A stretch of DNA of 64,000 nucleotides from Alphaproteobacteria bacterium (lineage in GTDB: Bacteria > Pseudomonadota > Alphaproteobacteria > CALKHQ01), in assembly GCA_965227515.1 (NCBI GenBank), contig CBDDFZ010000001.1, positions 3,296,001 through 3,360,000 of the forward strand, written 5' to 3'. A program made the position numbers and the translations under genes. The notes below the pieces were generated by a model. That model was not told the origin of the DNA. It saw only the letters and a program-made list of their open reading frames with translations, and searched no databases. Positions within the stretch are counted from its first letter, which is position 1; every line of letters starts with the position of its first letter. Shown piece by piece: positions 25,314 to 26,680 of the stretch.

Positions 25314-25418
25314 TAGAGCATGATCATTTAAGTCGGCACCAGCCCTCTCCCCCACCCGGCCGCCCAACGAAATTATGCTGCTGGGTGGCCGGGTGGGGGA
25401 GAGCGACTGTCTTTTGTG

Positions 25419-26351
25419 TCAAGCGTTTTGCCATGGGGTCCGATCTCTGATGATGGCATTGAGGATGACGAGGAGCTTGCGCATGACGGCGACGAGCGCG
25501 AGCTTCTTTGGCTTTCCGGCATGGAGCAGGCGTTGATAGAAGGCCTTGAGGATCGGGTTCCGTTGGCTGGCGACCAAGGCTGCCATGTAAAGGGTTGTGC
25601 GCAGATGACGCCGTCCCCCACGGATGGTGCGCTTGCCGCGCATGGTACCGCTGTCCCTGTTGAACGGCGCCAGGCCGACGAGGGCAGCGATCTTCTTTCG
25701 GTCGAGACGTCCGAGTTCAGGTAGGTCGGCGATCAGCGCACGGGCGGTGATATCGCCGACACCAGGCACGCTCTTGAGCAGGTCTTCGTCCTCGCGCCAA
25801 GCCGGTGTGCCGCGGATCGTCTCATCGAGCTCGCGTTCGAGGGCGGAGAGTTCTTTCTGCAGGGCCGCCAGCAGGCGGTCGACGCTCTTGACCATGCGTC
25901 GGCTGGTGAGCTGGCTGCGGCGATTGCGCTCGGCGGTCATCATGACGACGATCTGGCGCCGGCGGGCGATCAGCTCGCTGAGCACCTGGGTCTGGGTGTC
26001 GGCCAGCGGCCGAGGCTCGGGCCGGACCCGCTCGGCAAACAGCGCGATCGCCTTGGCATCTAGCGCATCGGTCTTGGCAAGCAGGCCAAGGGCACGCGCG
26101 AAGTCCCGGATCTGGCGCGGGTTGACCACGGCCAGCGGCAGTCCGGCCGTGGCCAGCGCCGCGGCCACCGTGACCTCGTAGCCGCCAGTCGCCTCCAGCA
26201 CGATCAGGCCCGGCGACAGCCCGGCCAGGTCCTCGACAAGACTTGCCAGAGCGTCACCGTCTCGTGCGACAGCAAAGCTCTGGCCGGACGGCAAGACATG
26301 CACGTCGAGCCGCGCCTTCGAGACATCAATGCCAACGAAAACCTGTTCCAT
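25419..26351 (-). CDS. IS110 recombinase/transposase (DEDD RuvC-like plus Tnp domain)
   Basis: GIDVSK, LEATG, KTDALDA, SVPGVG, RDSG (catalytic Ser), ALVAVMRKL. Confidence 0.95.
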
Positions 26352-26515
26352 CACCCGTCCTTGCAAATGCGGTCTCGCACGGCGGACCAAGCGACTGTTC
26401 GGGTTCATTGGAACAACGGGCAGGGTGCCAAGCTCTCCCACGGTCTTCGAGACCAAGGGCCTTGCGGCCTCCCGCCCGTCTCCGCCACCGCTACAATAAC
26501 CGCAGCGGCCACAAA
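26352..26515 (-). ncRNA. Predicted IS110 bridge RNA
   Basis: Non-coding end holds a 5' hairpin, a target loop (CAAGGCCCT / GGGAGAG) and a donor loop (ACAGTCGCT / TGCAAG) matching the element's own target and donor; RNA ends are approximate. Confidence 0.85.
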
Positions 26516-26680
26516 ATGAGATACAAGGGCTGGGGCAGATTCAGCGTAAGCTGATCCCGATCTAGCCGGATCGAGGCCGGGGCGGCTTGTGCCCCGGCCT
26601 CGCCCACACGTTTGGCGCTTGCTCCCGGATGACGGCCACTTTACCAATCAGTGACCACCCCAACGCACGGGAGGCCCCCC

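Follow-up and report, generated by a model that had tools for sequence, protein, structure and literature searches.

The insertion sequence (IS) that occupies positions 25402-26525 on the minus strand of a 64,000-nucleotide stretch of alphaproteobacterial DNA (contig CBDDFZ010000001.1 of assembly GCA_965227515.1; the whole stretch is referred to below as the window) is very probably an active or recently active member of the IS110 subgroup that moves by bridge RNA-guided recombination of the IS621 type. The anatomy of the element, the sites occupied by its genomic copies, the conservation of its RNA fold and the covariation of its guides with flanking DNA are direct observations. A preliminary description of the window had proposed an IS110 element whose bridge RNA, of the IS621 type, targets a repeat resembling repetitive extragenic palindromes (REP). 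That proposal is borne out by a conserved two-loop fold, guide-flank covariation, handshake guides and the presence of four copies in one site, and the coordinates and motifs that came with it are all found at their positions on the minus strand.

The element comprises 1,122 bp plus one copy of a CT core (~1,124 bp); a second copy of the core lies on its left side at 26526-26527. Read on the minus strand, the locus is ...CCCAGCC-CT|TGTATCTC...element...ACAGTCG|CT-CTCCCCCACCCGGCC..., with CCCAGCC (26534-26528), CT (26527-26526) and the IS start TGTAT (26525-26521) at the left boundary, and ACAGTCG (25410-25404), CT (25403-25402) and then CTCCC (25401-25397) at the right. These exact ends are common to all four full copies in the genome (99-100% identity), and TGTAT... 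and ...ACAGTCG are kept in relatives. The recombinase coding sequence (25419-26351, minus strand; ATG at 26351, stop at 25419-25421) specifies 310 amino acids, with an N-terminal DEDD RuvC-like domain (DEDD_Tnp_IS110, PF01548; 4.4e-22, 79 bits) and a C-terminal Tnp domain with the catalytic Ser (Transposase_20, PF02371; 4.7e-22, 78.6 bits). Its motifs GIDVSK (D9), LEATG (E53), KTDALDA (D95, D98) and RDSG (S234), in which the roles of the catalytic residues are taken from PMC11208158, align to ISCro4, and a PDB search with the protein returns bridge recombinases only (ISCro4 at 9.9e-40, IS621 at 4.5e-37). (The recombinase had been described as compact: the 310-residue length is correct, and it is ordinary for a clade in which the range is 310-325 amino acids.) The stop codon is followed by only 15 nt of non-coding sequence before the right end (25404), which leaves no room for the RNA 3' of the gene and excludes the IS1111 layout, in which the guide RNA follows the gene.

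The host genome (5.52 Mb in 2 contigs) contains four full copies of the element, all inserted at the same position within a REP-like hairpin, ...GCC-CT^CTCCCCCACCCGGCC, so that the expectation of finding the other copies in GCCCT^CTCCC holds for four of four. Each copy has CTCCCCCACCCGGCC as its right flank and CT on both sides, with no longer duplication; the left flanks are CCCAGCC, TCCAGCC and, twice, ACCGGCC. The open reading frame (ORF) is intact in all four. Copies 1 and 2 are identical over 1,124 bp, and copies 3 and 4 have 11 single-nucleotide polymorphisms (SNPs) in common and differ from each other by 3 bases. At the window locus, the left half of the split target, CCCAGCC plus CT, is the outer part of a REP arm (26526-26534, minus strand, by sequence). 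The remaining REP-like hairpin (CT-CTCCCCCACCCGGCC, loop, GGCCGGGUGGGGGAGAG; 25345-25403, strand not assigned) is delimited by its sequence and by repeat counts in the genome.

The target belongs to a long palindromic repeat whose arm motif, CTCCCCCACCCGG, occurs 163 times in the genome, as 65 exact hairpin pairs (starts 41-55 nt apart) and 33 arms with a degenerate partner. Among the 130 paired arms, 113 present a free ...CCCT^CTCCCC site, 4 carry the IS and 13 have variant junction bases. The reconstructed empty site, GCCCTCTCCCCCACCCGGCC, occurs uninterrupted 142 times, and the 17-mer CTCTCCCCCACCCGGCC contained in it 147 times (0.01 expected); for GCCCTCTCCC the genomic count is 191 (46.5 expected). 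The genome also has an arm that is uninterrupted and matches the joined flanks of the window copy exactly.

Relatives of the element were collected by a scan of one genome per species that yielded 431 pattern matches, 282 of them encoding a relative. The best 80 loci were kept (42-75% protein identity; ORF called in 77), and a left end CT|TGTAT and a right end ACAGTYG-CT recur throughout them. TGTAT is found at a plausible distance in 58 of the 74 non-identical upstream regions, which represent 38 distinct non-coding ends. Alignment A1 combines the window with 29 of these 38, leaving out L012, L015, L035, L041, L057, L067, L072, L076 and L085 by no stated criterion; several of these (e.g., L012 and L015) are one base off an included row, and the left end of L067 is at a contig edge. 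The trimmed alignment A2 (n=25) is A1 minus L040, whose core equals that of L039, and minus L073, L075, L084 and L086, which are highly divergent or have large insertions. The covariance model R1 (131 positions) picks out the four copies and nothing else in the window's own genome, and has 82 matches upstream of transposase genes over 82 sources. Full-length matches directly 5' of IS110 genes outside the training set include L052 (123.5 bits), L053, L036 and L059, and two in E. coli, one at ISEc32 (51.7 bits) and one at a pseudogene on the chromosome that is annotated as 'IS110 family RNA-guided transposase' (69 bits).

The structured non-coding RNA region at the left end lies 5' of the gene and has two internal loops, each split by a hairpin. 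Its core (26352-26483, minus strand), made up of the target loop, a small middle hairpin and the donor loop, abuts the start codon and scores 114.1 bits with R1. The call for a fold or covariance-model check over the non-coding end is thereby answered with a conserved two-loop fold. Upstream of the core, the minimum free energy (MFE) fold contains a 5' stem-loop (CCGCUGCGG/loop/GUAGCGGUGG region, 26487-26509) whose sequence is variable among relatives. The stem that closes the target loop is formed by ACGGGCGGG (26471-26479) and CCCTGCCCGT (RNA CCCUGCCCGU; 26416-26425), with compensatory changes in helices 1-2 and consensus pair counts in its favor. The hairpin within the target loop, GGTCTCGAAGACC (RNA GGUCUCGAAGACC; 26442-26454), is helix 3; 97% of its cells pair, and 2 of its 4 pairs have compensatory changes. 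The small hairpin between the loops, GUUCCAAUGAAC (26403-26414), is predicted from sequence and the MFE fold, with a register that varies in relatives. The hairpin within the donor loop, GGU...ACC (26371-26388), is helix 5, 97.3% paired, and GC/UA switches occur in 11 of 25 rows. (All of these features are on the minus strand.)

RNAalifold, applied to A2, gives the same arrangement of a stem and internal loop with a hairpin, followed by a second stem and internal loop with a hairpin. The 22-pair structure is paired in 92.2% of 550 cells, vs. 38.6-50.7% when the partners are slid by 1-3 columns, compensatory (both-side) changes are seen in 16 of 22 pairs, and none of 500 shuffles reaches any of the observed measures. 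The four well-aligned helices contain 22 G.U and 2 A.C combinations in 450 cells, which implies that the fold is maintained on the transposase strand. The window sequence folds at -85.3 kcal/mol (z -3.27); the opposite strand has a z of -2.11. The three SNPs that distinguish copies within the non-coding end leave the structure in place: 26474 (copies 3 and 4) changes C-G to U-G, 26418 (copy 4) generates G.U, and 26379 is in a hairpin loop. The guide bases are invariant across all four copies.

The 5' side of the first loop reads as left target plus core, and its 3' side complements core plus right target. The left target guide (LTG), CAAGGCCCT (RNA CAAGGCCCU; 26456-26464, minus strand), matches the left flanks of the four copies at 5-6 of 9 positions. 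The right target guide (RTG), GGGAGAG (26433-26439, minus strand), is an exact 7/7 complement of CT+CTCCC. When the 174-nt non-coding end was dinucleotide-shuffled 20,000 times, the exact 7-mer of the RTG turned up in 487 shuffles and the exact 9-mer of the left donor guide (LDG) in 6, and the two jointly in none. The core-proximal GGCCCT of the LTG was found in 1,655 shuffles and the 6-mer of the right donor guide (RDG) in 1,178; neither is significant in the window alone, and support for these two guides therefore comes only from the homologous positions in relatives.

The block homologous to the RTG is the exact complement of its own right flank (core + 5) in 19 of the 30 A1 elements, for example GGGTGAG/CTCACCC, GGATGAG/CTCATCC, TGGTGAG/CTCACCA, GCATGAG/CTCATGC and TGTTCAG/CTGAACA, and matches at 6/7 in 4 more. 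The remaining 7 score lower: the right end is poorly called in L065, L070, L078 and L080 (left-donor match <=6/9), L060 is cut short by the end of its contig, an insertion interrupts the block in L055, and L050 plainly disagrees. For the LTG, 29 distinct loops match their own flanks at a mean of 6.14/9, vs. 4.39 for the 812 non-own pairings. Permuting flanks among elements never reproduces the observed agreement, either at the 7 non-core positions of the LTG or at the 5 of the RTG (0 of 10,000 trials in each case).

How far each guide reads can be gauged from a model-based alignment of the 82 R1 matches, in which the left end is placed in 64 and the right end also in 54, and which resolves to 30 distinct target loops and 50 distinct insertion sites. 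(The LTG register was picked per loop, in the control as well.) Own matches of the RTG at positions +1 to +5 are 0.94, 0.94, 0.86, 0.92 and 0.94, and fall to 0.32 and 0.18 at +6 and +7; the background over +1 to +7 is 0.17-0.41 (0.26-0.41 at +1 to +5). For LTG positions 1-7 the own matches are 0.30, 0.32, 0.48, 0.74, 0.88, 0.98 and 0.94 against a background of 0.25, 0.31, 0.40, 0.37, 0.37, 0.51 and 0.68, so that positions 1-2 are at background level and position 3 is barely higher. Judged by the clade's natural insertions, then, the left guide reads ~4 bases plus core and the right guide 5 plus core. The nine-base LTG with 6/9 identity of the preliminary description is correct in its position and matches; its effective length is six (GGCCCU, 26461-26456, i.e., 4 + core), and it is this part that tracks left flanks in relatives. 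The effective target would accordingly be about GGCC-CT-CTCCC, or GCC-CT-CTCCC in the CCAGCC variant, and GGCC-CT-CTCCC is available in ~100 REP-like hairpins of the genome. We suggest, with slightly less than even confidence, that the division of labor between the guides is reversed relative to IS621, that the three 5' bases of the LTG are free, and that the short LTG admits the REP variants CCGGCC-CT and CCAGCC-CT, with the DNA hairpin possibly adding specificity.

The second loop has the IS right end plus core on its 5' side and, on its 3' side, a complement of the core plus left end. The LDG, ACAGTCGCT (RNA ACAGUCGCU; 26390-26398, minus strand), reproduces the final 7 nt of the IS together with the core (9/9). 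The RDG, UGCAAG (26360-26365, minus strand), pairs with CTTGTA of the left end through one G:T wobble; RCAAG is conserved. LDG and right end change together among relatives (ACGGTCGC in L032, ACGGTTGC in L060, ACAATTGCT in L067, ACAGTCACT in L075), and A replaces the wobble G of the RDG in UACAAG (L075 and L080) and GACAAG (L078), which makes the wobble position a perfect match in all three.

The handshake guides agree with published work as well. As described in PMC11208158, two bases 3' of each core-binding AG pair, after strand exchange, with positions 6-7 of the other DNA and not of their own. In the window, C of the target-loop handshake guide CU (26431-26432, minus strand) can pair with donor G7 and not with target C7, and G of the donor-loop handshake guide GA (26358-26359, minus strand) can pair with target C7 and not with donor G7. 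The same holds across A1: the first handshake base of the target loop pairs with donor position 7 in all 26 elements with a located right end (including two in which U faces an A7 donor), and with cognate target position 7 in only 2 of 30; for the donor-loop base, pairing is seen with target position 7 in 25 of 30 elements, as against 1 of 26 with the cognate donor. The handshake guides thus fit position 7 of the non-cognate DNA, and not of the cognate. The donor-loop GA and the 3' strand of the loop overlap the likely Shine-Dalgarno sequence AAGGA, 8 nt before the ATG; folding of the RNA, or its binding by protein, might limit translation of the recombinase.

A promoter would be assembled only when the ends are joined. 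The -35 box TTGACA (25417-25422, minus strand) is at the right end, overlapping the stop codon and 19 nt before the core, and the weak -10 box TATCTC (26518-26523, minus strand) is at the left end; they are separated by 17 nt only in the circular junction, and the integrated copy reads CGCTGA at the equivalent -35 position. This geometry gives the top-scoring -35/-10 pair in 21 of 26 elements, and in one more it is shifted by one base.

These features can be arranged in the following cycle, in which we infer the existence of the RNA, the circle, promoter use and catalysis. The element would leave as a circle, its right and left ends meeting over the CT core, and the junction would make both the donor site ACAGTCG-CT-TGTAT and the promoter (TTGACA, 17 nt, TATCTC). 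Transcription would yield an RNA of ~160 nt with two internal loops. The donor loop would bind the junction through ACAGUCGCU and UGCAAG, and the target loop would bind a REP arm, GGCCCU on the bottom strand and GGGAGAG on the top strand. The DEDD/Ser recombinase would exchange strands at CT, after which one handshake base per loop (C at 26432, G at 26359) would pair with the other DNA.

Several observations weigh against this interpretation. The -10 box of the window, TATCTC, lacks the consensus final T, where relatives mostly have TATCTT or TATGTT, and a promoter and terminator scan of the linear sequence yields 0 sites. (Bridge RNA is described in PMC13626964 as weakly expressed from chromosomal IS621 loci, and the lack of a predicted promoter in the integrated copy fits that account.) In the MFE fold, CCC of the LTG pairs with GGG of the RTG, and GGCC-GCAA-GGCC could form a competing hairpin; with these predicted pairings in competition, the loops may not be open in the free RNA. 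Since 17.1% of non-own pairings also attain 6/9 for the LTG, the LTG of the window is convincing only through positional homology, and its positions 1-3 (CAA) agree with no left flank among the four copies, save position 1 in the window copy; the per-position profile makes this CAA mismatch typical of the clade. Mobility, finally, is deduced from the identity of the copies, neither an empty-site allele nor a circle junction having been seen. The self-hairpin GGCC-GCAA-GGCC and a loop-base G.A were considered as signs of a defective RNA and rejected as unsupported: a shifted 4-bp helix is possible, and the feature is kept in all four copies. A search of sequencing runs for the stretch turned up no RNA run that contains it. 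Among the assembled contigs of two DNA read sets, none spans the element and none has an empty-site joint, a comparison that is uninformative; contigs from these read sets do place the same IS, with a few SNPs, under a second organism label.

The strongest of the competing explanations, and still an unlikely one, accepts the element as a genuine bridge RNA IS and takes its copies to be immobile relics, in which the weak -10 box and the imperfect LTG block production of the RNA or insertion. Such a view draws on the divergence of TATCTC from the TATCTT/TATGTT of most relatives, on the count of four copies in the face of at least 113 free sites, and on the presence of decayed fragments (L005 and L006) in the genome. 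Against it stand two copies that are identical over 1,124 bp and two others only 3 bases apart, with all ORFs and guides intact; the closest relatives with TATCTC (the L016, L018, L020 family) are multi-copy, and imperfect distal pairing of the LTG is the norm of the clade.

Of these fragments, L005 (G000:C1:3870887-3870950, minus strand) retains a split REP arm, the CT core and the initial ~55 nt of the left end of the IS, after which the sequence passes straight into the outer portion of the opposite arm; the inner hairpin and all other IS sequence are missing, and the same joint is found in one contig of run X1. L006 (G000:C1:1500199-1500292, minus strand) is an 84%-identical left-end fragment that ends just past the left side of the target loop, and its LTG CATGGCCCT adjoins the flank ACTGGCCCT, with 7 contiguous matches. 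Among the relatives, L020-L037, from one metagenome-assembled genome, represent a 73%-identical element in at least 15 loci of that genome. In L021, L028 and L029 the left part of the bridge RNA region is swapped for unrelated sequence. The left guide of the L020-L037 family ends CC-A where its targets read C-CT, and the core T is unmatched by the left guide in several clades.

Another, very improbable alternative is that the non-coding end is simply a protein-binding IS end and 5' untranslated region, the guide matches reflecting subterminal repeats and the C-rich target. The LDG and RDG would necessarily resemble the ends if they were simple subterminal repeats, and the LTG and RDG matches are, as already noted, not significant in the window sequence by itself. 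What decides against it is that the RTG and LTG vary with flanking host DNA, which is outside the element, and that the stems keep their pairing by compensatory and G.U changes on one strand only; homologous RNAs are, moreover, experimentally proven guides (PMC11208160, PMC11208158).

Least credible of all is the proposition that the functional transcript is an antisense small RNA (sRNA) of the sX15 type rather than a sense guide RNA, for although sX15 is the sole Rfam hit (opposite strand, 35.5 bits, E 0.0011) and the antisense RNA is the more abundant one in Xanthomonas (80 vs. 4 reads; PMC3300014, Table 1), the score is below the gathering score of 55, the excess of G.U over A.C places selection for the fold on the sense strand, the plus-strand fold is the weaker (z -2.1 vs. 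-3.3), the plus strand has no promoter-like site, and an antisense RNA would add to guide function, not replace it.

The bridge RNA interpretation of the element bears in turn on sX15 itself. Over 25000-27000, no Rfam family reaches its gathering score (miRNA and snoRNA rows there were set aside as chance matches to the perfect REP hairpin), and the window (26345-26485, plus strand, opposite to the transposase) is on that score not a member of sX15 (RF02234). At the type locus on Xanthomonas pXCV183 (L091), sX15 scores 150.9 bits on the plus strand (1579-1737) and R1 scores 53.1 bits at the same bases on the minus strand (1597-1727), which continues into ATG AAT GGC ATC GGG ATT GAT..., a truncated IS110-type start MNGIGIDVCKAKL. 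The R1 match opposite sX15, followed by this start, implies that the pXCV183 locus holds a homologous bridge RNA. That locus is a remnant without a recognizable transposase; the window's own sX15 match lies on the antisense strand and is subthreshold. Both sX15 and its complement asX7 are Northern-confirmed sRNAs, with 10 homologues reported in Stenotrophomonas maltophilia (Schmidtke et al. 2012, PMC3300014), and asX7 starts within 2 nt of the R1 match. By sequence comparison, sX15 thus looks like an IS110 bridge RNA read in reverse complement, and the asX7 detected in 2011 was probably a fragment of such an RNA; an antisense transcript over the bridge RNA may be a regulator. None of the literature matches listed for the names sX15 and asX7 links them to IS110.

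The REP that bears the IS is located between a ferritin-like (bacterioferritin-type) gene (26651-27163, plus strand), which begins ~115 bp past the left flank of the IS and is on the opposite strand, and an IS5-family element (24494-25317, plus strand). The latter has DUF4096 and DDE_Tnp_1 ORFs, probably joined by frameshifting, and ends GGCCTGTTGAGATTCA. It abuts CTAG at the outer edge of the same REP, and the same IS end abuts another REP at C1:38686xx; the repeat thus serves two unrelated IS families as a landing site. At least six REP copies, at G000 C1:741409, 1319514, 2242751, 3786863 and 3868637 and at C2:1017389, have a second arm that breaks off after GGCCGGGTG and gives way to a common sequence, CCAAAAGGGAGCGCGGATGCG.... 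CCAAAAGGGAGCGCGGATGCG was considered as a second IS end and dropped, since neither of two loci inspected has a transposase beside it; it could be another small repeat or a miniature inverted-repeat transposable element.

What the element adds is a natural bridge recombinase whose RNA is fully assignable, with target, donor and handshake guides and a candidate junction promoter, and an alignment of ~30 related target loops with real insertion sites. Its novelty had been overstated in the preliminary description: REP targeting, orthologues with other specificities and longer RTGs are already presented in PMC11208160. Because the mechanism, REP targeting and variation of RTG length have been published, the element opens no new question; what is slightly new is confined to the guide lengths of the clade, a short LTG and a five-base RTG, a profile that could inform the choice of orthologues for engineering.

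With regard to known systems, the nearest annotated DNA relatives are IS110 elements of alphaproteobacterial plasmids (Sinorhizobium, Martelella, Shinella, Roseomonas, Rhizobium and Methylobacterium, one labelled 'ISMno7 family'), at 64-68% identity over 86-96% of the element; all are <70% identical over most of the length, so none is the same IS. In blastn against E. coli genomes, the element aligns with IS110 genes, both ISEc32-family and unnamed ones, over their 3' third only, some of these E. coli relatives already carrying the RefSeq label 'IS110 family RNA-guided transposase'. ISEc32 was considered as a possible IS621 and rejected, since comparison with the PDB IS621 gives an E value of only 5e-30; the unnamed IS110 genes are likewise not IS621. 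The ISCro4 transposase (PDB 9t56) is the best match of solved structure (9.9e-40 over residues 3-307), a comparison of protein chains alone. Elements of the IS1111 subgroup have the recombinase family and the RNA-guided logic in common with the IS of the window and differ in that their seekRNA or bridge RNA is downstream of the gene (PMC11208160, Extended Data Fig. 10). ISPpu10 of Pseudomonas putida (bioRxiv 10.64898/2026.03.19.712850) resembles it in that all insertions are in copies of one conserved intergenic repeat, with a stem-loop formed beside the paired bases; the DNA stem-loop is experimentally a second specificity determinant there, whereas here the hairpin is on the right-target side and its role is only a candidate one.

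IS621 of E. coli, with its 177-nt bridge RNA (PMC11208160, PMC11208158, PDB 8wt6), provides the closest parallel in mechanism, in a comparison that rests on published descriptions and PDB protein matches. Both have a DEDD RuvC-like domain and a Tnp domain with a Ser nucleophile, and a left-end non-coding RNA in the order 5' stem-loop, LTG-hairpin-RTG-handshake, LDG-hairpin-RDG-handshake. They share, in addition, a CT core, REP-type targets and imperfect pairing of the RDG with the left end (in IS621 the RDG pairs discontiguously; PMC11208160), and the promoter split across the circle junction of IS621 has a candidate counterpart here. The proteins are distant (phmmer 4.5e-37), with 310 amino acids here and 328 residues in the PDB chain, and the target is GGCC-CT-CTCCC in place of ATCAGGC-CT-AC (PMC11208160). 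The guides, finally, are split in the opposite sense: ~4+2 on the left and 2+5 on the right in the element of the window, as against the nine-base LTG and four-base RTG given for IS621 in PMC11208160, where some orthologues are credited with longer RTGs.

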